Below, piece after piece: positions 1 to 27,736 of a stretch of DNA of 64,000 nt. Source of the DNA: Raillietiella orientalis (taxonomy: Eukaryota); assembly GCA_036172245.1 (NCBI GenBank), contig JAYWIR010000005.1, forward strand, positions 2,418,001 through 2,482,000, written 5' to 3'. The translations under genes and the position numbers were made by a program. The notes beneath the pieces were generated by a model, which was given only the letters and a program-made list of their open reading frames with translations, was not told where the DNA came from and did not search any database. Positions within the stretch are counted from its first letter, which is position 1. Each line of letters opens with the position of its first letter.

Positions 1-2900
1 CAGGCAGGGGGCCTCCGTTGCAAAACTGGAGGATGCAGGCGGATTGGCTTAGCCAACCGGAGGCTGCGGAGCATCTACGTGGATACCTCCGAGGCTTTGC
101 CATTCAGGAACTTGCGGACTGGGACGATGTCAAAAGATCTGTCCGCGAGTTCTGCTGCCAATTCCCCTTGCACCGGCTTCCATGCGGTTTCGGAGAGGGC
201 GTGGCCAACAGTAGAGACTTTCTGCAGGCCCGCACGTTTTCGAGACTCGCGGATGTCGGGCGTCTCGCAGAGTACAAGGCGAGGGCCGAGCGCCAGGTCT
301 GGCAGTCCGGAGCAGCATGCCTGTTGGACGACAAGGGCCAGGAATGTTCGGCCCCAGCCGAAGTACGCCGCATTGTGAGACGCTACTACTCCTCGCTCTA
401 CGCGGAATCCCCGACGGAGGATATTCTTTCTGAGATACTCCTATCTCAGGATGCTCGTGTTGTCGGCGAGGAGGAACGAGAACGTCTCGACGAGCCCTTC
501 ACGGCGGATGAATTTTCATCCGCCATCGCTGGGCTGAAGAGACGAAAGGCGCCAGGCGAGGATGGGCTCCCTGCAGAGTTTTATCAGTGCTTTGCAGTGG
601 AGCTCATTCCCTTGATGCTGAAACTCGCGACGCTGATGAGTGAATCCGGGAATGTCCCAGATTCCTTCCGCTCAGCGAAGGTGCGTCTCCTGCCGAAAGG
701 CGAAGACTCGCGCCAACTTAACAACTGGCGTCCGATCACCTTGGTGAACTCGGACGTCAACTTGTTTTCCAAGCTGTGGGTCGCGCGGTTAGGAAGTATC
801 GCGGAATCTGTGGTGAGCCCGGAACAAACCTACGCGGTTCCGGGACGATCCATGGAGGCGAACATCCTTTTCGCGCGTACATGGATGCAGCTGCAGGAAG
901 TTGTGGCGCAGCAAAGCCAGGCTGCTGCGAAAGTCACTGCCGCAGGCAAAAAGAACAGGCGCCGACGGCAGGAGGGAACGCCAGGTGCCTTGGCGGTCGC
1001 GGTCGATCTTCACAAGGCGTTCGACTGCGTAAACCAGAAGCTCCTCTTGGAGCTTATGGAACGCCTTGGGTTCCCGGCGCAACTCCTGCTGTATTTGCGC
1101 GCGTGCTGGCGCCACGCGCTAACCTGCATCACTTTTAGCGGCTGCCGCGTGTATGGTATTCCCGTTCGTAGGGGCATCCGACAGGGCGACAGCTTAAGCC
1201 CGTTGCTCTTCAGCATCTTCTTTAAGTTGGTGCTAAGAGCATACAGGCTGACGCTGTCTCACTTGCCAAGCTCCTGCCCGGGAACGCCTGCCGTGGCCGC
1301 CTACGCTGATGACCTGCTTCTTCTGCTCCCCATGTCCACCCCGGCGTACAGTGTCGAGGATTTCTTCGACCTGATTCGTCGGGGAGCGGGCGTGAGCGTG
1401 AACAGAGAGAAGAGCGTGGTCGTTCCTGTGGGTACGTCGTGGGAGGGGCAGTCCGACTGGATCCGCCTGGGGATCCCCACGGGCGGGTACTTTAAGTACC
1501 TTGGCGTTCCGTGGGGCGCTTTCGGCGCAGCCGAAGCGTGGGCGGACTGTCTTCAGAAAGCAGAGTTGGCCATCAGCCCGTTCTTTAACGGCAAGTTTAC
1601 CTTGCAGGAACGGGCGACTATTTGGAACACCTTTGTGGCCCCCCTCCTCCGTCCCCTGTTTTTTGTTTTGGACCCCCCCTATGCGGCGAAACAGCGGGCT
1701 AAGCGCCTGCTCAGGAACGCTCTCTGGGGTCTGGCGAGATCCAGGATCCGCCTTAAAGATTTGTCAGCTCCGCGTCGGGATGCTGGTTTGGGTATCCTGA
1801 CAATGGAGCGAATCGGACTGCAGGTGCAGTTCCGACTGCTGGCACTGTGTGCCCAGCTATGGACATCCCCCCTGTGTGTGCCAGCTCGCATTCTCCTGCG
1901 AAGATGCGCCGGCAGCGGAGGATTTCTCTCGCTTTTGCCGGGCACTCAATACAGAAAGCGGGGTTTCGGGTTTCCATTGCGGCAGTTGACCGCACTTCTA
2001 GAAGCACACTCGTGGATCTCCTGCCGCCCAATAAACTTTGAAGCTTGGCGGCAGGAGTCTGTTGAATCCTGGGCGGCGTTCCAAGGAATACGCCCTGAAG
2101 ATCTTCGCCCCCTGCGCCAATTTTTTCCACGATCCTTGGAAGAAGTACTGCAGGACGAGGTGAAGTTTTGTACCCTGGCTGCCACGCCTCTTGCCGCAGC
2201 GCTGTTTGCCCTCAGGGCAAGAAACGACAGTTACCAACCGGCGAGGTGGGAGGTTTCCTGCACGATAGCGGGAAAAACCAAACTCCTTGGCACCTGGAAG
2301 ACAAGTGAGTTGGCGGACGCCGCCACTCCTCGTGTTACTGCAAAGGGACTCCTCCGGTGGGCAGAAGAACTTGCTGTCACCCCCGAAGAACTTGTAGTCC
2401 CTTTACAGTGTATGGACAGTTCGCTGCTCCCCCTTGCTTAGAAACAAGACGTGCTGCTTTTCGTTCACTGGGGTTTTCAGTGCAACGAGCGTTGGCATCG
2501 TGACTCCGGGGGAATTGCGTCTGCGAACTGCGTTCGGTGCGGATCGACGGAGTCGATTCCGCACCTACTTCTGGACTGCGGTGTCCTACAAGGACTGTGG
2601 CGTAGGCTGGCAACAGCACTATTGCATCCCGTGGACACCGCAAGAGACTTGCTGCGACGATTCTTCACGCCGAGCGGGCTTTCACTAAGCGCAAGGATTG
2701 CAACCATCGGTTGCATACGCGCGATAGTTTCCGTCCGCCAGGCGTTGGTAATCAACGGACAGCACCAAGCGGTAATCAGCAAAGCATCCTTCTACATAGG
2801 AGCATCCGCTAGATGGCCTCATTTGACAGAGGAGACAAAGAGGAATCTCGCAGCAATACACCGCCGGTTTACACACGCTCAGCAGCGGGCAACCCGGTGA
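1..2900 (+). pseudogene. A1 ORF2 (linker, reverse transcriptase, C-terminal CCHC finger) with one nonsense codon
   Basis: ORFs 18..2441 and 2451..2900 are in the same frame; motifs KAPGEDG, NWRPITL, DLHKAFD, GIRQGDSLSP, YADD, FKYLG, CVRC..HLLLDC; TAG at 2439-2441 where copy A2 has TGG (LAWKQ). Confidence 0.92.
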
Positions 2901-3213
2901 TCATTGCCCTACCCTCCATAAACTATTTTTGTATTTTCTTTTTACACCCGCGTCCCCATAGGCTCCGGAACATTTTAGGTGCTCATCGTTTAAATCCCCG
3001 TGAGTACGGAGCCTAACCAAAAACCCGTTACCCTTCCCTCCAGTTTTTGATTTTTGTTTGTTTCCCCTCATTCCCCCCACGCTGCGAGCGGTTTGTTTAC
3101 CAGGCCTGCGTGCCGGTAATTTTTCAATGTTCTCTGTCGTTCTGTTGGTTAAGGACATTGTCCCTGACCAGTTTATTATTATTAATAAACGCCCCGGCGT
3201 GACCGGGTGATAA
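1..3213 (+). mobile_element. Non-LTR retrotransposon A1 (L1/Tx1-like), 3' part; 5' part lies upstream of the window; inserted in sense at the APE GDFN codons of B0
   Basis: RT ORF, 3' UTR, terminal AATAAACGCCCCGGCGTGACCGGGTGATAA followed by ATTTCAATC (3214-3222), the same 9-mer that forms the TSD of A2. Confidence 0.92.
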
Positions 3214-6200
3214 ATTTCAATCTCCGCCTGCTAACAGGTGAGCCGGAAACACAGGTGAACGCGATGAACGAGTTGTGCGCCGCCATGCGTGCGCGCAACT
3301 TGTTCGCGGGTGAGAGGGGAATGGTCCGCAGCATCGACCACGTCTTCCTCGACGCTGACCTGTGTTCACGGGTCGGCAAACGGGGGAGGGTTGCGTCAAC
3401 GTTGTCGGACCAGTCCCGGTTAATTTTCGAGATGCGGCCTCGCGACAAAGGACCGCCATCCAGAGACTGGCGTCTGCCGGGGGACTGGACGCGACTCTCA
3501 GGTGCGAAGGAACACCTTCGCGAATACCTGAGAGGCGTCACGCTCCGGAATCTCCAAGACTGGGACCTTTTTAAGGAATCGGTCTGGGAATTCTGCGAGC
3601 AGTTCCCCCTGGACCGCCTGCCCTCCGGATTCGGCGAGGGTCCTCGCAACCATCGGGCCTATTTACAGGCCCGTAGGTACGAGCGAACCCCTAATGTCCG
3701 TCGCCTGGCCGAGTACCGCGCCGGGGCCGAACGCCAAGCCTGGCAATCCGGGTCGGCCAGCTTGCTGGACGACCAGGGCCGGGAATGTTCGTCTCCGGCG
3801 TCGGTATGGCATCTCGTGCGGAGTTATTATTCCTCCCTTTACGCCAGGGCGCCCCCGGATCAAGATGCCTCTCGGCTCTTGCTTCCGGATGGTGCCCCGG
3901 CAATAGGGGAGGAGGAGTCGTTAAGCCTCGATGAGCCTTTTACCACCGGCGAAATTCTCGCCGGTATCAAAAGGCTCAAGAGTCGGAAAGCTCCAGGGGA
4001 AGACGGCTTGCCCGCGGAGTTCTATCAGAGCTTCGCGGAAGAGCTGGCACCCCTGCTGCTTCAGCTGACAAGGCTGATCCGAGACGAAGGCGATGTTCCC
4101 GCCTCGTTTCGGTCAGCCAGAGTGAGGCTCTTTCCGAAAGGGCGAGACCTTAGGAATTTGAACAACTGGCGTCCGATCACGATTGTGAATACGGACGCCA
4201 AGTTGGTTGCCGGGCTATGGGCTTCGCGTCTGGGGCAGGTGGCAGAATCCATTATTAGCCCGGAGCAGACATATGCTGTTCCCGGGCGAAGTATGGATGC
4301 CAACCTCTTCTTCGCGAGCACGTGGATGTACGCGCAGAGGTGTCAAAAGGAAGGGAAAAGAAAAATCGGCAACCCCACTTTGGGGCCGCCAGCAGGGCAG
4401 GGATTGGACTCCCGGGCGGGGAAGGGGGCCTTAGCGCTCGCAGTCGATCTCCATAAGGCGTTCGACTGTGTTGACCAGGGGCTTTTGTTGGAGCTCCTGG
4501 GTCGCATGGGCTTCCCACCCTCCTTGATCAACTACCTGCGCTCCTGCTGGCGCCATGCGATAATGTCCGTCTCTTTCAGCGGTCAGAAGGTGCATGGCGT
4601 GCCGGTGCGGCGGGGCATCAGGCAGGGAGATAGCCTGAGTCCCCTGCTCTTCAGCACCTACTTTGAGTTGGTGCTGAGAGCCTACAGGGTGACTTTGGCC
4701 TCCTTGCCTAGCTCGTGTCCCGGCACGCCCGCCGTAGCAGTCTATGCCGACGACCTTCTGCTCCTGTTACCTATGTCCACCCCGGCGAAGGCAGTCGGAG
4801 ACTTCTTCGATCTGCTCAGCCGTGGGACCGGACTGCAGGTCAACAGGGCGAAGTCGTCGGTGGTGCCAGTAGGTGCGGCGTGGGCAGCGCAGCAGGACTG
4901 GGTCCGTCTGGGGATCCCCACGGCGAGGAGCCTCAAGTACCTTGGTGTGCCGTTGGGTGACTACTCCCCTGCGGAAGCGTGGTCCAGCTGTCTTCAAAAA
5001 GTCGAGACGGCGATCGGCCCGTTCCTGGAAGGCAAATTTCACTTGCCGGAACGGGCCGCGGTTTGGAACGCATTCGCGGCCCCCATCCTCCGCCCCTTGC
5101 TTTTTGTTTGCCCCGCCCCCAGAGAATGCAAAAAGAGGACGAAGGACCTCCTCCGCATCGCCCTTTGGGGCAAGGGGAGGCCCCGAGTCCCTCTGCAGGA
5201 CTTGTGCGCTCCGCGTCGGGACGGCGGCCTTGGCCTCCTGACGCTGGAGCGCGTGGAAATCCAGCTGCGGTGGCGAACCCTCGCCATCGCAGCGAAGATG
5301 TGGAGCACCCCTTGGTGCGTTCCGGCCCGCCACCTCGCTAGGCGTGTGTCCCGATGCGAAGGACTCGCGTCGTTTCTTCTGTGCCCTGGCCGGAAGATCC
5401 GAAGATGCGGCCTTATGCTCGGACGCATAGCAACCTTGGCGAAGACGAACGGTTGGATGGTTTGTGGCCCCGCCAACTCCTCCGCCTGGTTAGAGGAGTC
5501 TGCTGGCACATGGGCTAAGCTGAACCAGAGGAGCGAAAACCACATGAACTGCCTGCGAATCGGCCCATACGCCAACCGCACCCTGCGGGAAATACTGGAA
5601 TTTCCTCGGAGTCGCAGGTGGGCGTTGACGACCCCCCTTGCTACGGCGATGCCCTACCTCCTGAGGGCGCTTCAGGATTGCCAGAAGCCGAGGTGGCAAG
5701 TCACCTGCCACATCGCAGGCAGGGAGAAGATGTTAAGCGGCTGGACCACAGGAGAACTGGCGGACGCCACGACCCCGAGCGTCCAGCCGCGTGGACTAAT
5801 GAGATGGGGCGAGCTGCTCGCCATCCCTACGGATGTGCTGAAGTGGCCCCCGGTATTAAGGGAATCCAGGATTCTGCCCCTTAAGTGGCAAGAGTCGGCG
5901 TTGCTTTTGTTGCACTGGGGTCTACCCTGCAACGCGCGCCGCTTCCACTGGACGAGGGGAGCTGTGGATCCTGCGTGTGCCAGGTGCGGGGAGCGGGAGT
6001 CGCTTCCCCAACTTATTGTGGATTGTGCTGCCATCCGACCCCTCTGGGAACGGTTCGGGGCGACCCTAGGGCTCCCTACGGGCAGCACCCCCAGAGACGT
6101 TCTTCGGCCCCTCTTCGTGAAGGACGCACTGCAGCCAGCCGCAGCCATCGCAGCCTTGTGCTGTGTCCGTGGCATCGTAGCGGCATGGAGCGACGCCAAC

Positions 6201-6350
6201 AACGAAGGAGTGGGTCCACACGCGAGGGATGTCGTCCCATACGCCCAACGCTTCATGCGGAGAGCTGCCGGATGGCCCCAACTGGGGAATATACGGACGG
6301 ACCTCAAGGGCTTCCTTCAACGGATGGGCCCTCCTCACAGCGTTCAGTGA
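3214..6350 (+). pseudogene. B0 ORF2: open frame of about 1045 aa (APE C-half, RT, CCHC finger), cut off from its N-terminus by the A1 insertion
   Basis: ORF 3207..6350; IDH, KAPGEDG, DLHKAFD, QGDSLSP, YADD, CARC..QLIVDC; the called start codon lies in the A1 terminus. Confidence 0.88.
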
Positions 6351-6569
6351 TCCCTTCCCTGCCCACCAACTTCTTTTTGTCTGTTTATGTTTTTTCTTTT
6401 TCTTTTTGTTTTATGCCCATCCCCCTTCGCTGCTGAGGAACGCTACGCTGGGCTGCGTCCCGGCGTCCCGGCAGGTCCAGTGCATATGGCCGTGAGCGGG
6501 GCCTTGTACCGCGGATGTAGAGTTTGTTTTTTTTTAAAAATAAACGCCCCGGGCGTACCCGGGTGTAAA
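3214..6569 (+). mobile_element. Retrotransposon B0, 3' segment from APE (D)FN to the 3' end; followed by mid-ORF1 of C0
   Basis: Homologous to B2 from 57012 onward; 3' UTR and terminal AATAAACGCCCCGGGCGTACCCGGGTGTAAA. Confidence 0.9.
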
Positions 6570-8919
6570 CCTCCAGGGCTGGCAAGAAGGCGGTAAGGCG
6601 TCCGGCCTCCCCTTAGGAGTCCCTTACTTCCGAACCCGAAGTGGAGGCCAGAAGCGCAGCCTCCGTTTCCACGGCACCGCGCAAGAAGGCTGGACGTAAT
6701 TCCACAAAGCCAAGGAAGCTCGTCTCGCCCGTCGAAAGAGAAGAGATGGCTTCCGCAAGCGAGGGTGCCATGACCGTGGGAAACTCTCGGGACCCGTCGC
6801 CCGAGAGACTCCTATGCGCGGACACGAAAGGGATGGAGGGGGTGGAGGCCGAAGAAGTGCCTCAGGTGCCTGAGAATGGGCATTCCGCCCGCCTTGCAAG
6901 AGGAGGGCTCCCCCACACCTTAATCTTCTCAGAAGTAATGCCAAGAATGTCCTCCCTCCGTCGTCTGCGCATCGCCGTTTGGAACGTGAACGGCATGACA
7001 GACGCCGGTAGGAGACGAGACATGGCCGCCCTTCTCGAGTCCTACGACCTTGCGCTGCTGCAGGAGATCCACGTGATCTCTGCAGAACAAGCGCAAGAGA
7101 TCGAACGGATCTCCGGAGGGCGGCTATGGTACAGGTGTGGGAGAGCGAAAAGTTGCGGTGTCGCCTACCTGCTTCGGCCAGCCGTCGAGGCCGCGGCTCG
7201 GGGCGTGCGGTTCGACGATCACGGTCGTGTCGGCCAGCTGACTCTCAGGTGGACCGACTCGATCGATCTGATCGTCACGAACGTGTACGCACTTAGCGGA
7301 AAGGACCTGATGAACAGGAGGGCGAGGAAACAGATTTTCCTTGCCCTCCGGCGAGACTGGCTGACCGAAGCAGGCGTGCGGAATGCCCATCTGGTTGCAG
7401 GCGATTTCAACGTCCGCCTAAACCAGATGGGCAGAATCCCGAGCGTGACCTGGTCAACGAGGTATGCATGGCGGTGCACACCTGTTATCTGTTGGCCAGT
7501 GCACCGGAAATGGAAGACAGCATTGACCACGTGTTTCTTGACGAGCACCTGTGCCCTCGCGTGTGCAGGCGCGGCAAGTTACCGTGCGAGCTGTCCGACC
7601 ATCGCCCGCTGGTCCTCGAGATCCATCCGCGCGACCAAGGCCCCCCCCTCGTCAGCGTGGCGTCTCCCAGGGGACTGACTGAAGCTCCCGGACGCGGCGG
7701 AACATCTCCGCACGTTCATACGGAGCTTCAGGCTGCGGACACTCCAGGATTGGGACCGCTTTAAGCGGTCGGTCCAGGAGTTCTGCGACCAGTTCCCTCC
7801 TCACCGCCCACCTAAGGGTTTTGGGACCGAAGTCCGTAACGAACGAGCCTACCTGCAGGCTTGTCGTTACGCCAGGACCCCCGACATCCGCAGGCTGGTG
7901 GAATACAGAGCGGGAGCCGAGAGGCAAGCCTGGCAGTCCGGATCGGCCAGCTTACTGGACGATCAGGGCCAGGAGCACTCGGCACCTGCCCAAATCCGCG
8001 GCCTACTGCGGAGTTACTACTCCTCCCTGTATGCCAGGGCACCTCCGGAGAGGAACGTCTTACGACTCCTGCTTCCGGAAGGCGCTGCAGCGATGGGGGA
8101 GGAGCAGAGAAAGACCCTCGACGAGGCTTTCACGATGGACGAGATCCTCTCGGCCATCGGAAAGCTCAAGAGGCGAAAAGCTCCAGGGGAGGACGGCCTG
8201 CCCGCGGAGTTTTATCAAACTTTCGCGGCTGAGCTTACCCCCTGGTACAGAAACTCACCTTGCTGATACGGGAAACAGGTGACGTTCCTGCCTCGTTTCG
8301 TTCGGCAAAGGTGCGGCTCCTCCCTAAGGGAAGAGATCTAAGGAGCATGAACAACTGGCGTCCCATCACAATAGTGAATGCGGACGCCAAGTTGCTGGCT
8401 AAGGTTTGAGCAGAGCGTCTGGGACGGGATGCCAACATCTTCATCAGCCCTGAACAGACATATGCTGTTCCCGGGCGAAGCATAGAGGCGAACCTGTTCC
8501 ATGCTTCCACCTGGCTAGAGCTCCAACATGAAAGGAGCTTGGTGCGCAGCCGGAATTCCGGTGCGTGCGCCGGCAAAGGGTTGGATGGTCGGCTGGGGGA
8601 GGGAGCCCTTGCGGTCGCAATCGACTTGCGGAAAGCATTCGATTGCGTCGACTAGAATCTCCTTCTGGAGCTTCTGGAACGCTTGGGCTTCCCGGCCTCA
8701 TTAGTGGCTTATCTGCGCTCCTGCTGGCGCTACGCGCTCATCAATGTTACTTTCGGGGGGCAGACCGTGCACGGCGTGCCGGTGCGGCGTGGGATCCGGC
8801 AGGGAGACAGCCTGAGCCCCTTGCTCTTCAGTTCCTACTTTTAGCTGGTACTGAGAGCGTACAGGGGAACTCTGGCGCACATGCCGCACGACTGTGCCGG
8901 TACGCCGGCCGTTTCAGCA
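6570..8919 (+). mobile_element. Retrotransposon C0 internal segment (ORF1 C-terminus, TAATG junction 6936-6940, APE, RT up to just before YADD); frameshifted
   Basis: Colinear with C1 from about 23557; MPRMSSLRRLRIAVWNVNG, LQE, GDFN, SDH, KAPGEDG, QGDSLSP; ends at PAVSA. Confidence 0.88.
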
Positions 8920-10686
8920 ATCTGCCAATAACCCAAGCTTCAAGCGCGCCTACGGAGAAAAAGTTTATCGAAACCGCAGAAAGAGAACTGGGCTGGCAGC
9001 TAGTCAGAGCCAAAAAAGAGAAAAAAAACACGCATGTCCCAAAGAAAGGAGATAAGGCGGTAGCCGGAACAAAAGCTCAATTCGTGTCGCGCGTAAAAAC
9101 TCTCCGAGAATGCACAGTGACGCTGGAGCGCACTGACATTCCCGCCGACACCACCCGAGGCGATACGGCTTCGATCGATTTTCCCGCCGCGACGAATGCG
9201 CGCCAAAATCCATCTCCTGCTTGCGAAGAGGGTCAGCCGGACGACAAACGCGCCGAAACCAAGGATCCAGCCTTCAAGAAGGCCGCCGAAGAGCTTGCGG
9301 CAACGCTTGCTGAATGCGAGAAGCATTCGCGGAAGGGGTTCCGTAGGCAGCCAGCGGCTAAAATGGCCCCCCCAGTTAAATCGGATCGGGAGGCCGGAAG
9401 TGCATCCTGTTCTGTGTAAGCACCACCAAGGGAAGCGGGGCGAAAATCCCAGAAACCCGGATGGTGCATTTCGCCTCCGCGCGAGGGGATCCAATGGAGG
9501 AGGAACCAGTGGATGGCAGCGAGGGAGCCCAAGTCGGGCATCACCCACGTCCGGAAGCCGACGAGGGGGCCATTCCGATGGAGGAGGGTAACCAGGGGTC
9601 AGCAATGCCCCCTGAAACCGCCGAATATGAACCACCCGCACCAATGGATGTGGACCAACAGGTACGAGCAACACCCCCTCCGCACGGGCAGCCGGAGACG
9701 TCGGCACGTAAGAAGGATGAGGTGTTGGTGGGCAAGACGCCAACCCCGTCCAGCGACCCGCCTCAAAAGGTGGCGGGAGCTCCACCGCCAGGTTCCCAGG
9801 AATAACACCTGGACTCGCCTGTCGCCGTAGGATCCGTGCGGCAAGTTGGAATGTCAGCGGGCTGCGCGAAGACGGAAACAGACGAGATACAGCCGCCACC
9901 TTGCGAGATTTCGACCTGTAGCTTTTGCAGGAGATCCACGTGATCACCGCAAAAGACGCCCTGAAGATCGAAACGATCGCAGGAGGGCGGTTGTACTGGC
10001 GATGCGGCGCCCGCAACACTTGTGGGGTCGCGTTCTTTCTGAAGCCAGCCATTAACGCGGCCGTGAAGGGCGTAAACTTTGGGGACGACGGACAGAACGG
10101 CCAATTGATTCTCAGATGGTCCGATTCGATCGACCTCATCGTCACCAATGTGTACGCTCCTAGCGCTAAACAGGGATACGAGCAGCACAACGCGTTACTG
10201 GAAATCTTGAAGCGCCAATGGCTGGTGGACGCGGACGTTCGAAAGGCGCATCTGATAGCAGGGGATTTCAACGTCCGTCTGCTCTCAGACCAGCCCGGAG
10301 CCCAGGGGAACGCGATCAACGAGTTTTGCGCTGCCATGCGCGCGCGCAACTTGTTGACAGAAATAAGCGGGATGGTCAGCAGCGTGGACCACGTCTTTCT
10401 CGACGGAGACCTGTGCACACGGGTCGGAAAACGAGGGACACTTGGACCGACGCTGTCGGACCATTCCCGGTTATTATTCGAGATGCGGCCGCGCGACAAG
10501 GGACCGCCATCCAGTGATTAGCGTATGCCAGGGGACTAAACGCGCCTGTCAGGAGCGAAAGAACATCATCGCAAATTCCTGCAAGGCGTCACCTCCAGAG
10601 ACTCGTGGATTGGGACCTATTTAAGAACTCGGTCCGGGAGTTCTGCGAACAGTTCCCTGTGCAACGTCTGCCCCGAGGACACGGCG
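8920..10686 (+). mobile_element. Retrotransposon F1, left segment (5'-truncated in ORF1; APE and linker to LPRGHG); host of B1
   Basis: Homologous to 36156-37500; ORF1 ends GSQE* at 9805; APE ORF 9925..10521 (LQE, NVYAP, GDFN, VDH, SDH). Confidence 0.85.
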
Positions 10687-10893
10687 TTATCACCCGGGTA
10701 CGCCTGGGGCGTTTATTAATAAACTCTACATGCGTGGTAAAAGGCTTCACCACGGCCGTAAACACAGGACCTGTCGGGACACCGGGACGCAGCCCGGCGT
10801 GGCACTCCCCGACAGCGAAAGGGGATAAGGGGAAAAAACAAAAAGAAAAAAAAGAAATAAAAAACAAAAAGTGTTTGGAGGGCAGGGTAGGGA

Positions 10894-13046
10894 TCACTGG
10901 TCGCTGTAAGGAGGGCCCATCCTTCGAAGAAAGCCCTCGATGTATATCCGCATATGACCCAACTGGGGCCATCCAGCAGCTCTCCGCAGAAAGCGTTGGG
11001 CATATGGGATGACATCCCTCGCGTGTTGACCCACTTCTTCGTTGTTGGCGTCGCTCCATGCCGCCACGATGCCACGGACGCAGCACAAGCCTGCGATGGC
11101 TGCGGCTGGCTGCAGTGCGTCCTTCACGAAGAAAGGCCGAAGAACGTCTCTACGGGAACTGCCCATAGGGAGACCGAGGATCGTCCCAAACCGTTCTTAT
11201 AGGGATCATAGAGCAGCACAGTCCACAATAAGGTAGGAGAGCGATTCAAGATCTCCGCACCTGACACACGCAGGATCCACAACTCCTCTTGTCCAGTAGG
11301 AGCGGCGTGCGTTGCAGGGTAAACCCCAATGCCACAATAGCAACGCCGACTCTTGCCACTTGAGGGGCAGGATCCTGGATTCCTGAAGAAGCGGGGGCCA
11401 CTTCAGCACATCCATAGGGATGGCCAGCAGCTCGCCCCATCTTTTTAGTCCTCGCGGCTGGACGCTCGGGGTCGTGGCGTCGGCCAGTTCTCCTGTTGTC
11501 CAGCCGCTGATCAATTTTTCGCGTCCCTCGATGCAGCAGGAGACTTGCCACCTTGGCGTCCGGCTGCTGTGCAGTGCCCTCCTCAGGAAGGGCAGCATCG
11601 TAGCCAGGCAGGTCGTCTCTGCCCACGTGCTTCTTGCTGGACACTCTAGGAGATTCTGCAGCGTGCAGCGGGCGTATTGGCTGCATCAGAGACGATTCCA
11701 CGTTTCGTAGCTCCTCTGGTTAACCGCTGCCCACATTCCAATGTTCTCCTCCAGCCAGGCGGGGGAGTTGGCGGGGCAGGAAACTATCTTGCTGTTCTCC
11801 ATGGCCAACGATGCCATGCGCCCGAGCAGTAGACCGCATCTCCGAATCTTCCGGCCAGGGCACAGAAGAAATGACGCGTGTCCCTCGCACCGGGACACAC
11901 GACTGGCGAGGAGGCGAGCCGGAATGCACCACGGGGTGCTTTACATCTTCGCTGCGATGGCGAGGGTACGCCATTGCACCTGTTTCTCCACGCGCTCCAG
12001 CGTCAGGAGGCTAAGTCCGCCGTCCCGACGAGGAGCGCAAAGGTCCTTCAAAGGGACTCAGGTCCTCCCCTTGCCCCAAAGGGCGATGCGGAGGAGGTAG
12101 TTCGTCCTCTTTTTAACAACTCCTGGGTCGGGGCAAACAAAAAGCAAGGGGCGGAGGATGAGGGCGGCAAAGGCGTTCTAAACAGCGGCCCGTTACGGCA
12201 AGTGAAACTTGCCTTCCAGGAACGGGCTGATCGCCGTCTCGACTTTTTGGAGGCAGCTGGACCACGCTTTCGCAGGGGAGTAGTCCCCCAACGGCACACC
12301 AAGGTACTTGGAGCACCTCGCCGTGGGGATCTCCAGACGGACCCAGTCCTGCTGCCCTGCCCACGCCGCACCTATTGGCACAACCGACGACTTCGCCCTG
12401 TTAACCTGCAGTCCGGTCCCGCGGCTGAGCAGATCGAAGAAGTCTCCGGCTACGTTTGCCGGGGTGGACATTGGCAACAAGAGCAGAAGATCGTCGGCGT
12501 ACGCTGCTACGGCGGGCGTGCCGGGGCACGAGCTCGGCAAGGGGGCCAAACTCATCCTGTACGCTCTCAGCACCAACTCAAAGTAGGTGCTGAAGAGCAG
12601 GGAGCTGAGGGTATCTTGCTGCCTTATGCCCCGCCGCACCGGCACGCCATTCACCTTGTGACCGCTGATATAGACCGTAATCATCGCATTCCGCCAGCAA
12701 GAGCGCAGGTAGGAAATCAGGGAGTGTGGGAAGCCCATGCGACGCAGGAGCTCCAAGAGTAGTTCCTGGTCTACACAGTCGAACGCCTTGTGGAGATCGA
12801 CTGCTAGCGCTAGGGCCCCCTTGCCCGCCAGGGCTCCCTTCCCAGCCTGGCTGGCGGCCCCAATGTGGGGTTGCCGACTTTCCCTATCCCTTTCTTCTCT
12901 CTTCTCTGCGGGTGCACCCATGTGCTGGCGAAGAAGGTTGGCATCCATACTTCTCCCAGGAACAGCATAAGTGTGCTCCGGGCTAATTACGGATTCTGCC
13001 ACCTACCCCAGACGCGAAGCTTATAGCCCTGCTATCAACTTGGCGT
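10894..13046 (-). pseudogene. B1 ORF2 3' piece (RT from DAKL to the CCHC finger), degenerate
   Basis: ORFs 12193..13002 (DLHKAFD, YADD), 11206..11598, 10894..11166. Confidence 0.88.
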
Positions 13047-13134
13047 GCGGACGTGCTTTTGTAGCGCTCCTCTGCGCCTGGTGTAAAGCGTTTGGTTTCT
13101 TTTGTGTTTGTGTGTGAAGCATCTGCGGTGTCCA

Positions 13135-15154
13135 ATGGCAGAAATGCCTGAGGACATCGCGATGGATATAGGACGGAGAGAGGCTTGCTCCTCTCCCCAA
13201 CCCACGGAGGTGGGGGCAACCGCTTCCACGGAGGCGACGGCAGCCGCACCCCTGAAAAAGGGGGCAACCGCCGCCTCGGAAGCGAGGGCAAAGGCCCCCT
13301 TGAAAAAGGGGGCAAAAGCCCCGCTGGAACAGGGTGCAACCGCCCCCTTGAAAAAGGGGACAACCGCAACCCTGGAAAAGGGCGTAACCGCCTCCTTGAA
13401 AAAGGGGGCACCTGCACCCTCGAATGCGTCTTCGGCATCGCCGAAGACCTGGAGTTCAGTGGCTGCAGCCCCATCTCCTGCAGCCCTCGCCGAGCAGAAA
13501 GCCTACCTAGAGCACGGATACAAGCCGTCCCTGATATACAAGGTAGGCAATCTGTTTGTTCGGGAACACCGCTCGCAACTTCGAAAGGGAGTTGCAGCGG
13601 TTGAACGGAAAAGAGGAAGACCTGGAAGGTCTTTCCGTGTTGAGTGGTGGTCAGCGGGTGGAGCTGACTTGCAGAAATGCAAGCCTTGCTCAACACCTCC
13701 TGAATACGCCAATCACACTGGAAGGCCGAAAAGTTTTCCCGGTAACGGAGGATCCCTCCGTGGTGACGCACATCACGGGAGTCACCCTCCGCATGTCGAA
13801 AGCCGACGTGCAGGAGGAAATCGGAAAATACGGAGCGGTTCACGCGCTATGGCCCAAGCCCAACTTCCAGAGTTACGGAAGACTGTTTAGTGGCATGGCT
13901 GGTGCGCGTGTAACCGTCCACGAAAACGGTGGGCTACCCCACAAACTAGACGTCGGCAACGAGACCGTCGACGTCTGGTACGTGGGCAAGCCCAAGTACT
14001 GTGGACACTGCGATGCAACACGGCACCTGAAGAAGCGGTGCCCTCACATCCAGTGTTTCCACTGTGGAGAGAAGGGCCACCTTTGCAAAGTGTGCCCGAA
14101 GCGCGAACCCCCGGCTCCCGCTGCCTTGTAAAAGGCCAAAGGGAAACGCGCGGGGGCTACGGAAAACCCTGCGAAGGCACCCTTGAGGCGGAACCCACAG
14201 CCGGAGCCCGAGCCCGTACAGCAAACGCCGGTCGTGGAATCTACAGACGACGCTAAAAAGAGCGAAGGCTGGCAGAAGGCGAAGCCTAAAGCTAAGAAAC
14301 CAAAGAAAACCGAAGGGTCGACAGCGGAACCCGCGACGTGTCCTTTAAATAGGAGACAACGCCGCGCGTTGATCCGCGAATGTTCGGTCGCCTTGGAGCG
14401 TGTGGAGGTACCCGAGTCCGCCACCGGGGGAGATATCCCCCGCGTCGACGCCGACGATAACGCGATCACGGAAGGCGAACCCTCTGTGCAAACAGAGGGG
14501 GAACCGCGCGACGCGCTCGCCGCGATCGACGAGGTCGCCTTCCAGCAGGCGGCGGAAGAGCTCGCGGCCGAACTCGCCGACCGTGAGAACGGCGCGCGAA
14601 AGGCCTTGCGAAGGCCGGCCGCGACCAGGGCACCTCCGACAGGTGACCACGACCCGGACGCCGGAAGTGCGTCCTCCTCCACGGAGGCGCCTCTGAAGAA
14701 GACTGGACGGAAGTCCAAGAATCCCAAGAGGCGCATCCCGACGAAGAGCGAGGGGGACGCACCGGCAGCCGAAGGGGAAGCCGGCAGCGTGGAAACGGAG
14801 GGAGGAATTTTCCCACCCTCCGCCACCGAGCAGCCGGCCACCCCCATGGAGGAGGGGAAGCAGGTAGGGCATTGCTTCCCCCTTCCACCGGTGGAGCCTG
14901 CGGAGAAGATGGTCATGGAAGAGGGGGAGCAGACAGCTGAGAACCGCTCCCGCCTGCCGTCCAACGCAGTCAAGGAATCGGTCCCCATGGAAGACGGGAA
15001 GCAGGTGCGTGAAGCATGCTCCCTTCAACCGTTGCGGTCCGCCGAGGAATCGGCCCCCATGGAGGTGGGAGAACCGCTGGGCGGTGCCCCCATTCCTCCA
15101 TCCGTCCCGCCTGACCAGGTGGCGGGAGCCCCATTGCCACTTTCCCGGGAATAA
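13135..15154 (+). pseudogene. D ORF1, gag-like (two CX2CX4HX4C knuckles, basic then acidic tail); frameshift and stop
   Basis: ORFs 13102..13890, 13556..14131 (CGHCDATRHLKKRC, CFHCGEKGHLCKVC), 14183..15154. Confidence 0.88.
13245..13412 (+). repeat. 24-bp coding minisatellite in D ORF1 (about 7 imperfect units, APLKKGAT)
   Basis: Recurring GCAACCGCCCCCTTGAAAAAGGGG variants. Confidence 0.85.
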
Positions 15155-18100
15155 CACCTGGGCTCGCCTGTCGCCGTCGATTGCGTGTGGCATGTTGGAA
15201 CGTCCACGGGCTGCGCGACGACAGCAACAGACGGGACACGGCAGCCACCCTGCGTGACTTCGACCTGGCACTCCTGCAGGAGATCCACGTGATCACCGGG
15301 GAGAACGCCCAGGAGATCGAGAGGATCGCAGGGGGGCGGCTGGTGTGGCAATGCGGCACCCGATACACCTGCGGCGTCGCGTTTTTCATGAAGCCGGCGG
15401 TCGACGCTGCCGTGAAGGGCGTGCGCTTCGACGAAGCCGGTCGTGTCGGCCAGCTGATTCTCAGATGGTCCGACACGATCGACCTGGTCGTAACAAACGT
15501 ATACGCCCCGAGCGGTTATAACAGGTACCGGGAACTCGCGGCGTTCCTGGAAAGCCTGAAGCACGACTGGCTGGTGGAAGCGAACGTGCGCGTGGCTCAC
15601 CTGATAGCGGGAGACTTCAATGTCCGCCTGCTATCAGGTGAGCCACGCACACAGGAACGGACGGCTAACGAGTTGTGCGCTGCCATGCGCACGCGCAACT
15701 TGTTAGGAGAACTTCCGGAAATGGTCAGCAACATCGACCACGTCTACCTGGACGTCGACTTGTGCTCGCGGGTCGGCAAACGGGGGAAAGTTGCGTCGGA
15801 ACTGTCTGACCATTCCAGATTGATATTCGAGGTGTGCCCGCGCGACAAAAGACCCCCGTCCAGGGCGTGGCGGTTGCCTGGGGACTGGACGCGCCTCTCA
15901 GGTGCGAAGGAACACCTTCGGGAATTCCTGAGAGGCGTCACCCTCCGCAGACTCAAAGATTGGGACCTCTTCAAGGCCTCGGTCCGCGAGTTCTGCGAGG
16001 AGTTCCCCCTGCACCGCCTGCCCCTCGGATTTGGGGAGGAAGCTCGGAACCATAGGGCCTATTTACAGGCCCGCCGGTACGAGAGGACCCCCAATGTCCG
16101 TCGCCTGGCAGAGTACCGAGCCGGGGCCGAACGTCAAGCCTGGCAATCCGGATCGGCCAGATTGCTGGACGACCAGGGCCGGGAGCACTCGGCTCCGGCT
16201 GGAATACGGCACCTCGTGCGGCGTTATCATTCCTCCCTTTACACCAGGGCGCCCCCGGACCAAGATGCCTCTCGGCGCTTGCTTCCGAACGGTACCCTGT
16301 CAATAGGGGAGGAGGAGAAGGAAAGCCTCGACGAGCCTTTTACCACCGGTGAAATTCTCACCGGTATCAAAAGGCTCAAGAGGCGGAAAGCACCAAGGGA
16401 GGAAGGCCTGCCTGCGGAGTTTTTTCAATGCTCCGCGGCAGAGTTGGCACCCCTGGTGCTTGAGTTGACAAGGCTGATCCGAGATGAAGGCGATGTACCC
16501 GTGTCGTATCGGTCAGCCAGAGTGAGGCTCCTTCCGAAAGGGGGAGACCTAAGGAAACTCAGCAACTGGCGTCCGATCACAATTGTGAACACGGACGCCA
16601 AGTTGATCGCCGGACTGTGGGCTTCGCGTCTGGGGCAGGTGACCAATTCCATAATTAGCCCGGAGCAGACTTACCCTGTTCCCGGGCGAAGTATGGAGGC
16701 CAACCTCTTCTTCCCGAGCACATGGTTTCATGTGCAGAGTAGTAAAGAAAAGGAAGATAGAAGGATTGGCAGCCCCGCTTTGGGGGCGTCAGCCGGACAG
16801 GGACAGGACTTCCAGGTGGGGAAGGGTGCCTTAGCGATCGCAGTCGATCTGCATAAAGCGTTTGACTGCGTGGACAAGGATCTCCTGCTGGAGCTGCTGG
16901 GACGCATGGGCTTCCCTCCCTCCCTACTGACCTACCTGCGCTCTTGCTGGCGCAGCGCACTGATCAATATCTCTTTCAGAGGTCAAATGGCGTACGGCGT
17001 GCCGGTACGGCGGGGCATAGGCAGGGCGACAGCCTCAGTCCCCTGATCTTTAGCACCTACTTTGAGTTGGTGCTGAGAGCGTATAGGGTGACGTTGGCCC
17101 CCTTGCCGAGCTCGTGCCCCGGCACGCCCGCCGTAGCAGGGTGCGCCGACGATCTTTTGCTTCTGTTGCCGATGTCCACCCCGGCGAAGGCGATCGGGAA
17201 TTTCTTCGATCTTCTTAGCCGCGGGACCGGACTGACGGTGAACAGGGCGAAGTCGACGGTGGTTCCAGTCGGTGCGGCGTGAGCTGGGCAGCAGGACTGG
17301 GACCGCTTGGGGATCCCCACGGCGAGGTGCTTGAAGTACCTCGGTGTGTCGTTGGGGGATTACTCCCCTTCGGATGCGTGGTGCGGCTGCCTCCAAAAAG
17401 TGGAAACGGCGATCGGCCCGTTCTTGGAAGACGAGTTCCTGCTTCCGGAATGGGCCGCGGTGTGGAACTCCTTTGCGGCTCCCATCCTCCGCCCTCTGCT
17501 TTTTGTTTGCCCCGTCCCCAGAGACATGAAGAAAAGGACGAGGACCTCCTGAGGATTGCCCTTTGGGGAAGAGGGAGGACCCGAGTCCAGTTGAAGGACT
17601 TGTGTGCTCCACGTCGGGATGGTGGTCTGGGCCTCTTGTCGGTGGAGAGAGTAGAAATTTAGCTGCCATGGCGCACCTTGGCCATCGCAGCGAAGTTATG
17701 GAGCACCCCATGGTGCGTTCCGGCCCGACTCCTTGCCAGCCGTGTATATGGAACGGAGGGTCTCGCGTCTCATCTTCTGTGCCGCGGCTCGAAGATCAAG
17801 AGATGCGGACTCCTCCTGGGACGCATGGCAACTCTGGCAAAGGAAAACGGCTGGATGGAATGCAGCCCCGCCAACTCCTCCGCATGGCTGGAGGAGACCG
17901 CTGGCACGTGGGCGAAGATAAACCAGAAAAATGAAGAGATGTGGAACTGCCTGCGACGCGGCGCCTATTCCCGCTGCACTCTGCGGAAGATACTTCAGTG
18001 TCCCGCGAGAAGCACGTGGGCAGAGACAACCCCCCTAGCTACGGCGATGCCCTTCCTGAGGAGGGCGCTCTCCAGCAGCCGCAAGCCTAGGTGGCAAGTC

Positions 18101-18739
18101 TCCTGCCGCATCGCAGGCAAGGAGAAGTTGATCAGCGGCTGGTCCACGGGTGAACTGGCGGACGCCAGTACCCCTAGTGTCCAGCCGAGAGAGCTGCAGA
18201 GATGAGGCGAGCTACTCGGCATCCAGCCGGATGACCTGAAGTGGCCCCCTGTATTAATTTGTTCTAGGATCCTCCCCCTGAACTGGAAGGAGTCGGCGCT
18301 TCTGTTGTTGCATTGGGGTCTACCCTTCAACGCACGCCGCCACCACTGGACGAGGGGTCGAGTAGATCCTACCTGCATCAGGTGTGGGGAACGGGAAACT
18401 CTCCCCCACCTCCTTGTTGATTGTGCTGCACTCCGACCCCTGTGGGAACGTCTTCGTGCCTCCCTACGGATCCAGGAGGGCAGCCAGCCCAGAGACGTTT
18501 TTCGGCTTCTGTTCGTGCATGATGCCCTGCCTCCAGCCGCTACCCTGGCTGCACTTTGCTGCGTACGCGGGATTGTGACGTGCTGGAGCATCGTCGGAAG
18601 ACCGAGCCACGACAGGGATGCCGTCGTACTTGCAGCCCGCTACCTGCGGATTGTGACTAGATGGCCCCCCCTGGGAATTATACGGACGGACCTCGAGGGC
18701 ATCCTGCGAAGGATGGACCCTACTCCCAGTGGTCAGTGA
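15154..18739 (+). pseudogene. D ORF2 APE-RT-CCHC with frameshifts and stops; YADD mutated to CADD
   Basis: ORF 15181..17046 (CWNVHG, LQE, NVYAP, GDFN, IDH, SDH, DLHKAFD), 16944..17282, 17678..18205, 18305..18739. Confidence 0.9.
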
Positions 18740-18943
18740 TCCCTCCCCAACCCTCCCAAATCTTTTTGTTTTGATGTTTTATTTTTCTTTTTGTTTTTTC
18801 CCCCACCCTTCCGCTGCCGAGGAGAGTCGCGCCGGTCTGCGTACCGGCGACCCAGCAGGTCCAGATGAGTTGGCCGTAGTGGGGCCTCGTACCACGAATC
18901 AAAGAGAATTTTTAATAAACGCCCCGGCGTGACCGGGTGGCAA

Positions 18944-19939
18944 CTATAAACTTGGCGTCCGTATTCACGATGGTGATCGGACGCCAGTTCTTTCAATCCT
19001 TGAGGTCTCCCCCTTTCGGAAGGAGCCTCACTCTGGCTGACCGAAACGAGGAGGGAACATCGCTTTCGTCTCGGATCAGCCTGATCAACTTAAGCAGAAG
19101 GGGTGCCAGCTCTTCCGCGAAGCTCTGAAAGAACTCCGCGGGAAAGCCGTCTTCCCCTGGAGCTTCACGCCTCTAAAGCCTTTTGATACCGGCGAGAATT
19201 TCGTCGGTGGTAAAAGGGTCGTCGAGGCTTTCCATCTCCTCCTCCCCTAGTGCCGGGGCGTCATCCGGAAGCTAGCGCCGAAAGGCGTCTCGATCCGGGG
19301 GCTGTCTGGCGTAAAGGGAGGAATAGAAACTCCGCACGAGATGCCGTATTGACGCCTGGGACGAACATTCCCTGCCCTGGTCGTCCAGCAAGCTGGCCGA
19401 TTCGGATCGCAAGGCTTGGCGTTCGGCCCTGGCGCGGAACTCGGCCACGCGACGGACATTAGGGATTCTCTTGTATTTGCGAGCCTGTAAGTAGGCCCGA
19501 TGGTTGCGAGGACCCTCGCCGAATCCGGGGGGCAGGCGGTTCAGGGGGAACTGCTCGCAGAACTCAAGGACCGAGGCCTTGAGAAGGTCCCAATATGAGA
19601 GATTCTGGAGCGTGTCGCCTCTCAGGTATTCGCGAAGGTGTTCCCTCGCACCTGAGAGTCGCGTCCAGTCCCACGGCGGACGCCAATCCCTGCATGGCGG
19701 TACCTTGTCGCGAGGCCCCATCTCGAAAATTAGCCGGGAATGGTCCGACAACGTTGACGCAACGCTTCCCCGTTTGCCGACCCGTGAACACAGGTCAGCG
19801 TCGAGGAAGACGTGGCCGATGCTGCGAATCATTCCCTTCTCATCCGCGAACAAGTTGCGCGCACGCGTGGCGGCGCACAACTCGTTCATCGCGTTCTCTT
19901 GTGTTTCCAGGTCTCCTGTTAGCAGGCGGAGATTGAAAT
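18944..19939 (-). pseudogene. B1 ORF2 middle piece (APE FN to RT DAK)
   Basis: ORF 19272..19946 is nearly identical to the start of 3207..6350. Confidence 0.88.
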
Positions 19940-20252
19940 TTATCACCCGGTCACGCCGGGGGGTTTATTGATAATAATTAACTGGTCAGGGACAATGTCC
20001 ACAACCAACAGTACGACAGGAAAGATAGAAAAATTTTTGGCACGCAGGCCTGGTAAACAAACCGCTCGCAGCGTGGGAGGAATGAGGGGAAAAAAACAGA
20101 AATCAAAAACTGGAGGGAAAGGTGACGGGTTTTTGGATAGGCTCCGTACTCACGGGGATTTATACGATGAGCACATGAAATGTTTCGGAGCCTATGGGGA
20201 CGCGGGTGTAAAAAGAAAATCCAAAATTAGTTTATGGAGGGTAGGGCAATCA

Positions 20253-22108
20253 TCACCGGGCTAGCCGCTGCTGAGCGTATCTAAACCGGCGGTGTATTGC
20301 GGCGAGATTCCTTTTTGTCTCCTCTGTCGAATGAGGCCATCTAGCGAATGCTCCAGCGTAGAAGAATGCTTTGCTGATTACCTCTTGGTGCTGTCCGTTG
20401 ATTACCAACGCCTGGCGGACGGAAACTATCGCGCGTATGCACCTGATGGTTGCATTCCTTGCGCTTAGTGATAGCCCGCTCGGCGTGAAGAATCGTCGCA
20501 GCAAGTCTCTTGCGGTGTCCACGGGATGCATTATTAGTGTTGCCAGCCTACGCCACAGTCCATGTAGGACACCGCAGTCCAGAAGTAGGTGCGGAATCGA
20601 CTCCGTCGATCCGCACCGAACGCAGTTCGCAGACGCAAGTCCCCCGGAGTCACGATGCCAACGCTCGTTGCACTGAAAACCCCAGTGAACGAAGAGCAGC
20701 ACGGCTTGTTTCCAAGCAAGGGGGAGCAGCGAACTGTCAATACACTGTGGAGGGACTACAAGTTCTTCGGGGGTGACAGCAAGTTCTTCTGCCCACCGGA
20801 GGAGTCCCTTTGCAGTAACACGAGGAGTGGCGGCGTCCGCCAATTCACTCGTCTTCCAGGCGCCAAGGAGTTTCGTTTTTCCCTCTATGGTGCAGGAAAC
20901 CTCCCACCTCGCCGGTTGGTAACTGTCGTTTCTCGCCCTGAGGGCAGACAGCGCTGCGGCAAGAGGCGTGGCAGCCAGGGTAGAAAACTTCACCTCGTCC
21001 TGCAGTACTTCTTCCAAGGATCGTGGAAAAAATTGGCGCAGGGGGCGAAGATCTTCAGGGCGTATACCTTGGAATGCCGCCCAGGATTCAACAGACTCCT
21101 GCCGCCAAGCTTTAAAGTTCATTGGGCGGCAGGAAATCCACTAGTGTGCTTACAGAAGTGCGGTCAACTGCCGCAATGGAAACCCGAAACCCCGCTTCCT
21201 GTATTGAGTGCCCGGCAAAAGCGAGAGAAATCCTCCGCTGCCGGCGCATCTCCGCAGGAAAATGCGTGCTGGCACACACAGGGGGGATGTCCCTAGCTGG
21301 GCACACAGTGCCAGCAGTCGGAACTGCACCTTGAGTCCGATTCGCTGTATTGTCAGGATACCCAAACCAGCATCCTGACGCGGAGCTAACAAATCTTTAA
21401 GGCGGATCCTGGATCTCGCCGGACCCCAGAGAGCGTTCCTGAGCAGGCGCTCAGCTTGCTGTTTCGCGGCATAGGGAAGGTCCAAAACAAAAAACAAAGG
21501 ACAACGGAGGGGGGCCACAAAGGTGTTCCAAATAGTCGCCCGTTCCTGCAAGGAAAACTTGCCGTTTAAGAACGGGCTGATGGCCAACTCTGCTTTCTGA
21601 AGACAGTGCGCCCACGCTTCGGTTGCGCCGAAAGCGCCCAACGGAACGCCAAGGTACTTAAAGTACCCGCCCGTGGGGATACCCAGGCGGATCCAGTCGG
21701 ACTGCCCCTCCCACGACGTTCCCACAGGAACGACCACGCTCTTCTCTCTGTTCACGCTCACGCCCGCTCCCCGACGAATCAGGTCGAAGAAATCCTCGAC
21801 ACTGGACGCCGGGGTTGACATGGGGAGCAGAAGAAGCAGGTCATCAGCGTAGGCTGCCACGGCAGGCGTTCCCGGGCAGGAGCTTGGCAAGGGAGACAGC
21901 GTCAGCCTGTGTGATCTTAGCACCAACTCAAAGAAAATGCTGAAGAGCAACGGGCTTAAGCTGTCGCCCTATCGGATGCCCCTACGAACGGGAATACCAT
22001 ACACGTGGCAGCCGCTGAGAGTGATGGAGGTTAGCGCGTGGCGCTAGCACGCGCGCAAATACAGCAGGAGTTGCGGCGGGAACCCAAGGCGTTCCATAAG
22101 CTCCAAAA
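20253..22108 (-). pseudogene. A2 ORF2 3' piece (RT C-half, CCHC finger)
   Basis: ORFs 21150..21950 (YADD) and 20253..21122, highly similar to A1. Confidence 0.9.
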
Positions 22109-22220
22109 GCAGTCGAAAGCTTTACGTCAGCTAGAGGGGACGTGTTTTCTCGGTGCTCCTCGTGCCGGGAACCGTCCCTAGGTGTAGGCTTCGTGTGTGG
22201 TGGTGGTCGATCAGGCAGTA

Positions 22221-27518: not shown

Positions 27519-27736
27519 TCCCTTCACGTTCCCTCCCACCCTTTGTTTGTTTTTGTTTAGTTTTTTTGTTTTTCCCCTTTCCCCTGCTGCCTTGGTGGAC
27601 CGTACCGGTCTAGAAACCGGTGAATTAGCAGACTCCCTGGTTCTTAGCTTCTGGCTGGAGCATTGCCACAGCCATTAATAATTTCTTTATAAAGTTTATT
27701 TTTTTAAAAAACGACCCTTAGAAATCCGGCTGAAAA

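Follow-up and report, generated by a model that had tools for sequence, protein, structure and literature searches.

How a single subfamily of retrotransposon comes to lie repeatedly in the same few codons of its own relatives is the question raised by a 64-kb stretch of the Raillietiella orientalis genome (contig JAYWIR010000005.1 of assembly GCA_036172245.1, positions 2,418,001 to 2,482,000, forward strand), the whole of which was analysed and is called the window below, with positions counted from its first base. The elements are long interspersed nuclear elements (LINEs), and the codons are those for the GDFN motif of their endonuclease (EN), the D and N of which we take to be catalytic from the L1 endonuclease literature. 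Subfamily A is found three times in the window, always in the sense orientation and always at the GDFN codons of sibling elements of the B or D type, in hosts that had already diverged from one another. The insertion of A is best read as subfamily-specific and target-primed, a variant of both Tx1/R1-type target specificity and the self-nesting of Zepp and Cnl1. The features on which this reading is built are the following (ORF, open reading frame; RT, reverse transcriptase; UTR, untranslated region; TSD, target-site duplication).

1-3213, plus strand: A1, a LINE of subfamily A cut off by the start of the window, with its last 3.2 kb (3' side) present; RT ORF at 3-2441, 3' end ...AATAAACGCCCCGGCGTGACCGGGTGATAA
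2442-3183, plus strand: A-specific 3' UTR, in A1
3214-3222, plus strand: target 9-mer ATTTCAATC after A1, covering the last two bases of the D codon, then the codons for F and N and one more base
3214-6569, plus strand: B(A1), B-type host from the GDFN codons to its own 3' end; ORF open from 3189 to 6350
19940-22117, minus strand: A2, 3' segment past the insertion site of a C element; 3' end at 19940
27737-31454, minus strand: A2, 5' segment with ORF1, EN and RT to the KAFD codons; full-length 5' end GGGTGCGGACGTGTTTTTC at 31454
19931-19939, minus strand: downstream copy of the A2 TSD, 9 bp
31455-31463, minus strand: upstream copy of the A2 TSD, 9 bp
31455-33780, minus strand: B(A2), 5' part, with the 5' end, ORF1 and EN to GDFN
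18950-19939, minus strand: B(A2), middle, from GDFN to the NTDAK codons, ending at the insertion of element E
10687-13046, minus strand: B(A2), 3' part, 3' end at 10687
36156-37500, plus strand: D2, D-type host of A3, running from the ORF1b region up to GGGAGA, within the codons for GDFN
37501-37514, plus strand: filler at the A3 5' junction, 14 bases
37515-39343, plus strand: A3, 5'-truncated and starting at A coordinate 1881; C(A3) interrupts it at the KAFD codons, and the 3' part lies outside the window
57012-57020, plus strand: empty target ATTTCAATC in the intact GDFN codons of Bref, an uninterrupted B copy at 54696-60352

The original prediction, made from the letters of the window, held that the 3' ends of A adjoin one 9-mer at 3214 and 19939, and reading of the junctions bears this out. 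A1 ends ...CCGGGTGATAA/ATTTCAATC at 3213/3214 (a slash marks the junction; the wider terminal stretch is ...GGGTGATAA), past which B(A1) runs on in frame to its own 3' end at 6569, and A2 has the same junction on the minus strand at 19940/19939. As also foreseen, the 5' end of A2 follows the 9-mer (...GCGGTAG ATTTCAATC/GGGTGCGGACG at 31455/31454), and the two A2 junctions together form a perfect 9-bp TSD (31455-31463 and 19931-19939). The host of A2 lies in three pieces (33780-31455, 19939-18950 and 13046-10687), which are split by A2 and E according to mapping on Bref and A2 and to the junctions. A3 had been expected to start, 5'-truncated, right after the codons for HLIAGD at 37501, which is correct to within the 14 filler bases: D2 stops at 37500 with ...CACCTAATAGCGGGAGA, which covers HLIAG and bases 1 and 2 of the D codon, and this end (...GCGGGAGA, GGGAGA) lies one base into the 9-mer; filler occupies 37501-37514, and homology to A begins at 37515, corresponding to A coordinate 1881.

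Both A 3' ends seen thus share one junction nucleotide (GATAA/ATTTCAATC, 2 of 2), as independent copies of a target-specific LINE do, and the two A 5' junctions fall within 8 nt of each other. The 9-mer ATTTCAATC occurs four times in the window against 0.34 expected, a count reached in none of 100 shuffles. Its copies at 3214-3222 (plus), 19931-19939 (minus) and 31455-31463 (minus) flank subfamily A; the fourth, at 57012-57020 (plus), lies in the uninterrupted Bref, where it encodes part of AGDFNLRL and reads G-D-F-N. The GDFN codons of A itself are GGGGACTTCAAC, unlike the occupied sequence. Two further insertions would hit the same nucleotide and strand within a 5.9-kb host by chance with a probability of about 7e-9, which becomes 6e-8 when 9 nt are allowed for A3.

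These insertions belong to a window that is almost wholly retrotransposon sequence of the kind lacking long terminal repeats (non-LTR), with a GC content of 53-63%. Comparison of the window with itself gave 132 repeat pairs, and a tblastn map of its whole length with ORF1, EN and C-terminal RT queries shows about 20 LINE pieces on both strands, nested in one another. Among the 14 long ORFs that were profiled, RVT_1 was found in five (in the RT ORF of A1 at 2.1e-19), Exo_endo_phos, which is of the APE type, in three (two above the curated cut-off and one at 24.4 bits against a cut-off of 24.5) and CCHC knuckles in three; four matched no family. The elements carry an APE endonuclease and an RT, and an ORF1 with CCHC, and the order of EN followed by RT in ORF2 identifies them as APE-type non-LTR retrotransposons. 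The best solved-structure match of the family EN is the human L1 endonuclease (E 2e-6), with GDFN aligned on the L1 GDFN, and the nearest database proteins in a search with 40 hits are one unnamed match at 68% and others at no more than 30% identity. TSDs accompany A2 (9 bp), the C element in A2 (5 bp) and E (9 bp), and A3 shows 5' truncation with filler. A 5' start with GGACGTGTTTTTC is common to all subfamilies, as is the 3' end ...CCGGGTGATAA, with the longer form AATAAACGCCCCGGCGTGACCGGGTGATAA. All ten 3' ends examined lie directly on the flank with no A run or simple repeat tail, their terminal bases being TGATAA, TGAAAA, CTATAA, AGCAA or TTCAA. A 3' hairpin of seven pairs is predicted, for which a compensatory change in only one pair is weak evidence.

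Does the recurrence record repeated insertion, or was a single old A insertion in B copied by segmental or tandem duplication of the composite, with the host parts later scrambled by recombination with other B copies? The many long repeats in the window would suit such copying, as would the mosaic B hosts, in which the nearest relative switches about every 400-1200 bp, and the first 200 bp of host flank (93%), which are as alike as the adjacent A 3' UTR (90.5-93%). However, segmental duplicates would show equal divergence of insert and host and a single clade of occupied hosts, and neither was found. A1 and A2 differ at 157 of 3197 sites (4.9%), whereas their hosts differ at 482 of 3339 (14.4%; Fisher 4.9e-40), which is three times the insert divergence; A2 and A3 differ at 157 of 1828 sites and their host 5' flanks at 111 of 510 (p 1e-14). 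Neither occupied B host has the other as its nearest copy, both being closer to the empty Bref: identity in the proximal and distal parts is 92.7% and 87.3% for B(A1) and Bref, 90.3% and 89.8% for B(A2) and Bref, and 89.4% and 83.9% for B(A1) and B(A2). Even in the first 200 bp, B(A1) is nearer to Bref (9 of 200 sites differing) than to B(A2) (14 of 200). In the host tree (3336 columns), Bref and B(A2) group with 100/100 support; forcing the occupied hosts together costs 100 log-likelihood units, and the approximately unbiased (AU) test rejects their clade (p-AU 9e-5). With E as the outgroup, B(A2) and Bref share 90 derived sites and B(A1) and Bref 28, and only 16 are shared by B(A1) and B(A2).

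The comparison of insert and host trees that had been proposed for this locus thus gives an incongruent result, as the relationships of the hosts do not follow the insert tree, (A1,(A2,A3)), and the host of A3 belongs to family D. That the hosts differ in their other regions was likewise anticipated, and they do: B(A1) and B(A2) are 89.4% alike in the first kb and 83.9% beyond it, and D2 and B(A2) are 78.2% alike. Between the hosts, differences concentrate at third codon positions (p 4e-7 and 1e-10), which makes the hosts separate products of master copies that diverged under selection; the A1-A2 differences are even over codon positions and represent recent neutral decay. D2 has no relative closer than 82%; D1, which is among the nearest, is empty at the site. 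Because the 5' junction of A3 is truncated and carries filler, it marks a new retrotransposition event, not a duplicate of the A2 junction, and with its host of another family A3 cannot copy the A2 composite. Duplication would, in addition, require a precise loss of A from Bref. It is therefore an unlikely account of the three insertions, and every test within the window favours recurrent targeting of sibling elements at a catalytic motif over one duplicated insertion. Of the idea of an old insertion that was duplicated and then recombined, the recombination stands, since the B hosts are mosaics, and the duplication is rejected for the copies seen. Template switching as a source of A-B chimeras was also considered and rejected, for A2 since both junctions and the TSD lie in one continuous host, and for A3 since it restarts at the beginning of the EN after the host GDFN.

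Recurrent targeting can also be examined in the sibling subfamilies, whose insertions and hosts in the window are as follows.

22118-27736, plus strand: C(A2), full-length C-type LINE antisense in A2 at the KAFD codons; TSD TCGAA at 22113-22117 and 27737-27741
39344-42990, minus strand: C(A3), C-type LINE antisense in A3, sharing with C(A2) the exact nucleotide of the 3' junction
13047-18949: E, full length, antisense in B(A2); TSD ACTTGGCGT
8919-10686 and 33781-36104: D1+F, holding B(A2) antisense
51712-54695, minus strand: X, carrying Bref and then G
From 60359: G, head to tail after Bref, carrying H
62702-64000, minus strand: H, inside G

C lies antisense at the codons for the RT motif KAFD in both A2 and A3, with 2 of 2 3' junctions at the same nucleotide (GAAAA/TCGA; the junction sequences are GAAAA/TCGAACGCC and GAAAA/TCGATCGCC). 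A1, the closest relative of A2, is empty at this site (near 1024-1040). Beside the C 5' junction, A2 is without 16 bases of A. C(A2) and C(A3) are 83.0% alike (620 of 3641 sites differ) and their A hosts 91.4%, and C(A3) is 90.0% like a third copy, C3; as the C copies are less alike than their hosts and C(A3) is nearer to C3, they are separate insertions by different C sublineages. For the same reasons, a retrotransposed A::C composite was rejected as the source of C in A2 and A3.

The C insertions bear on a further alternative, in which A spread in a homing-like manner, an A-bearing B converting empty B copies by ectopic gene conversion or complementary DNA-mediated recombination through flanking homology, with no sequence-specific endonuclease. 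Recombination among B copies is visible, the A1 and A2 junctions and the 9-mer are identical, and the data leave room for a co-converted flank of up to 200 bp. However, the 3' flanks of A1 and A2 differ at 5 of the first 69 bases and are not mutual nearest relatives, and the truncated A3 5' end with its filler is not a conversion product. Antisense C at one site, in copies that are more diverged (83%) than their hosts (91.4%), is the opposite of what conversion of composites predicts. Homing-like spread thus appears quite improbable, and recurrent target-primed insertion remains the preferred account.

B, in turn, lies antisense at the GFGEG codons between EN and RT, in D1+F and in X. Its 3' junctions read GATAA/CGCC in B(A2) and Bref (two of the three B 3' ends seen), and its 5' junctions are at the GFGEG codons in B(A2), Bref and G, which are all three that are visible; the B-site junctions are at 10681-10686/33781-33786, 54689-54695 and 60353-60358. 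Bref and G stand head to tail with only CGCCAA between them, as if the same site had been hit twice. The 3' end of B(A1) (GGGTGTAAA) adjoins, at 6569/6570, the start of the 5'-truncated C3 in the sense orientation, which reflects either an off-target B insertion or a later C3 insertion exactly there. E is a single insertion, antisense at the NTDAK codons of B(A2), and X and H are single insertions at other sites. The 5' end of E (GCGGACGTGC, preceded by CTTGGCGT) resembles both the target (ACTTGGCGTCCG) and the B 5' ends (CTTGGCGAGTGGACG; 13038-13046/18950-18958 and 13047-13060), so that the border between TSD and element is ambiguous, and microhomology may have had a part in the E insertion.

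A pile-up in a cluster with no real specificity, produced by a structural or chromatin hotspot or by a loose endonuclease preference, would account for the single insertions E, X, H, K and D1 at unrelated sites and for B(A1) lying away from the usual site of its family. What it does not predict is the recurrence of nucleotide-identical 3' junctions in a fixed orientation (2 of 2 3' ends in A, 2 of 2 in C and 2 of 3 in B), the chance estimate for A alone being about 1e-8 to 1e-7. We regard this explanation as highly improbable.

Several points nevertheless weigh against the view that A aims at the GDFN codons. Only three A copies are at hand, all from one 64-kb window, and the site of A3 is read from its 5' junction, as its 3' junction lies outside the window. 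Identity between the A1 and A2 composites shows no sharp step where insert gives way to host: it is 90.5-93% over the final 600 bp of A, 93% (14/200) over the first 200 bp of host and about 88% over the next 2 kb, and the first host bin does not differ significantly from the ORF part of A (p 0.11) and lies only marginally below the rest of the host (p 0.037). Since B(A1) is nearer to the empty Bref in this bin (9/200), its low divergence seems to belong to this conserved stretch as such; at A1/A2, a co-converted flank, short and of no more than 200 bp, may nonetheless be present. The three B copies (3214-6569, 10687-13046/18950-19939 and 57012-60352) are mosaic, the nearest relative switching about every 400-1200 bp, so recombination acts in the region; the pattern hints that B lineages exchanged sequence by recombination or template switching. 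Sibling subfamily B departs from strict specificity, in that the B(A1) 3' end adjoins C3 at 6570 and not a CGCC site. A by-eye search of the junctions in six subfamilies found neither a common target motif nor RNA pairing between 3' end and target. Finally, two contigs of a related public sequencing run match up to 3215 and then diverge, which gives other flanks for elements, of whatever subfamily, with the same terminal bases.

Against this background, we still consider it likely that subfamily A is a target-specific non-LTR retrotransposon with a preferred target of approximately GGGAG/ATTTCAATC, the GDFN motif of the APE endonuclease in related B- and D-type LINEs. Starting from the observed site, orientation, TSD, empty site and independent hosts, insertion might proceed as follows. 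The endonuclease of A ORF2 would nick the bottom strand opposite G/A in the D codon (GGGAG/ATTTCAATC), the candidate duplex for nicking containing GGGAGATTTCAATC. The nick would prime reverse transcription of A RNA, with its fixed, non-polyadenylated 3' end ...CCGGGTGATAA, and a top-strand cut about 9 nt downstream would yield the 9-bp duplication. Joining at the 5' end would be variable, as in the truncation and filler of A3, which are a mark of target-primed insertion. We infer that the endonuclease, and not another domain or RNA-target pairing, reads the site, and that the GDFN rule for A holds genome-wide. The fixed, structured 3' end, or read-through transcripts carrying the target, could also help in finding the site; in R1-type elements, 3' end structure and read-through transcripts aid insertion. 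The variant GGGGACTTCAAC in the GDFN codons of A could protect A from itself. C at the RT KAFD codons and B at the GFGEG codons seem to follow the same logic; on this reading, the entire nest would be the work of LINEs that exploit one another's conserved coding sequence as landing sites present in many copies.

The remainder of the window adds several further observations. A distant LINE family, J, occupies 45460-50550 on the minus strand, with an RT and a CCHC ORF1 and about 27% protein identity to B ORF2, and interrupts an A-like element whose pieces are K (42995-43867) and I (50550-51711). G is without about 320 bp that include the GDFN site, the gap at 62523-62540 being bridged by 14 bases (TCAGACCATTCTCA). 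D1 (8919) and D2 (36156) both start with AATCTGCCAATAACC at the beginning of the ORF1b region, where they could have a true 5' end in common or have been truncated at the same point. D1 meets C3 immediately ahead of the codons for RT YADD (ATATGCGGACGAC where C is intact), and D2 is separated from F by 54 unassigned bases.

Searches outside the window were made at the A1 junction and with junction patterns. Contigs of three public runs were compared with positions 1-6600 (270, 1 and 6 contigs placed, with half of the sampled words in run X1). Among the matches listed (15 of 286 pieces), a 1040-base contig covers 2193-3232 with 19 differences and extends only 19 bases past the junction, not bridging it; loose contig ends among these matches fall at 3184 (two contigs), 3215 (two) and 3267 (three), with no subfamily assignment. 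A scan of metagenome contigs with the shared 3'-end pattern gave 35 loci, of which 0 of 35 were related to the window, one having only a 24-base match, and a scan of prokaryote genome contigs with the A junction pattern gave five loci, all in records titled bacterial; the matches of both scans are put down to chance.

The Tx1 and R1 clades include target-specific LINEs with an APE-type endonuclease, some of which insert into transposons (PMC4640811). Such LINEs are reported to join their target precisely at the 3' end and variably at the 5' end, and to insert in tandem (PMC4640811). Named examples are Tx1L in the Tx1D transposon, R1 in 28S ribosomal DNA and Keno in U2 genes. The elements in the window are similar in that they combine an APE endonuclease with an RT, have a 3' junction at one nucleotide of a multicopy target with a variable 5' junction, and show an occasional same-site tandem insertion, here Bref and then G after CGCCAA, which is comparable to those in the available part of that account (PMC4640811). 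However, the target here is the coding sequence of a sibling LINE, at conserved enzyme-motif codons, and three or more sibling subfamilies, alike in their 3' end, have apparently three different targets.

The second group of comparable systems consists of nested clusters. Zepp of Chlorella and Coccomyxa and ZeppL of Chlamydomonas form clusters by insertion into existing copies, according to the available portions of their descriptions (PMC3446292, PMC8226300), and the roughly 20 nested LINE pieces here make a cluster of this kind. There are differences as well. The 3' repeats given for Zepp and L1-1_CR are (A)n (PMC3747384), whereas the elements in the window end ...TGATAA with no poly(A); Coccomyxa Zepp ORF1 is HTH_1-like in what is available of its report (PMC5203782), whereas ORF1 here has a CCHC knuckle. 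Nucleotide-precise or subfamily-specific targets do not appear in the available descriptions of Zepp and ZeppL, a scope that does not take in the original Zepp account. Cnl1 of Cryptococcus is a non-LTR element that inserts preferentially within itself and forms nested arrays (PMC9942834, available text). Its arrays lie in subtelomeres, hold a single family and run in tandem orientation, in contrast to the several sibling subfamilies, both orientations and catalytic-motif codon sites in the window. In the available portions of the literature consulted, including 10.1101/2025.03.28.645958, PMC11005252 and PMC9940879, neither a nucleotide-precise site in sibling coding sequence nor differing sites of sibling subfamilies was seen, and literature searches turned up no paper reporting either; the original Zepp paper lies outside this scope, and the result is not proof of absence.

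A third parallel is one of logic. The target-specific LINEs and self-nesting clusters described above are already known; what the window adds is aiming, particular to each subfamily, at the conserved catalytic codons of sibling elements. Homing endonuclease genes, inteins and group I and II introns are selfish elements that sit at conserved gene sites, and such elements aim at the most conserved codons of their targets because these cannot mutate away. The same logic would hold here, although the machinery is entirely different, being target-primed reverse transcription, and the target itself is selfish.

Taken further, the window could be read, tentatively and with rather less confidence than the specificity of A, as a nest built by a guild of sibling LINEs that share one 3' end, each subfamily having its own nucleotide-precise site in the conserved enzyme codons of the others, so that each insertion would gain a safe multicopy target, one unable to mutate away, and disable the EN or RT of a competitor. 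In that guild, and with the same reserve, the sites would be the sense EN GDFN codons for A, the antisense RT KAFD codons for C, the antisense GFGEG codons for B and the antisense NTDAK codons for E (one case).

If true, this would bear on how LINE islands arise. The nested clusters of Zepp, ZeppL and Cnl1 are proposed components of centromeres or chromosome ends, and how new copies find old ones is not explained in the available text of those accounts. Precise sites in sibling coding sequence would supply such a copy-finding mechanism and, with it, a concrete molecular account of why Zepp-like LINEs cluster with themselves in single chromosomal islands, which has so far gone unexplained. The guild would also show transposon lineages in competition, one disabling the catalytic motif of another. 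Furthermore, it would imply rapid retargeting of the APE endonuclease among close relatives, and these closely related enzymes, each with its own target, would form a natural series for learning how APE endonucleases are retargeted.

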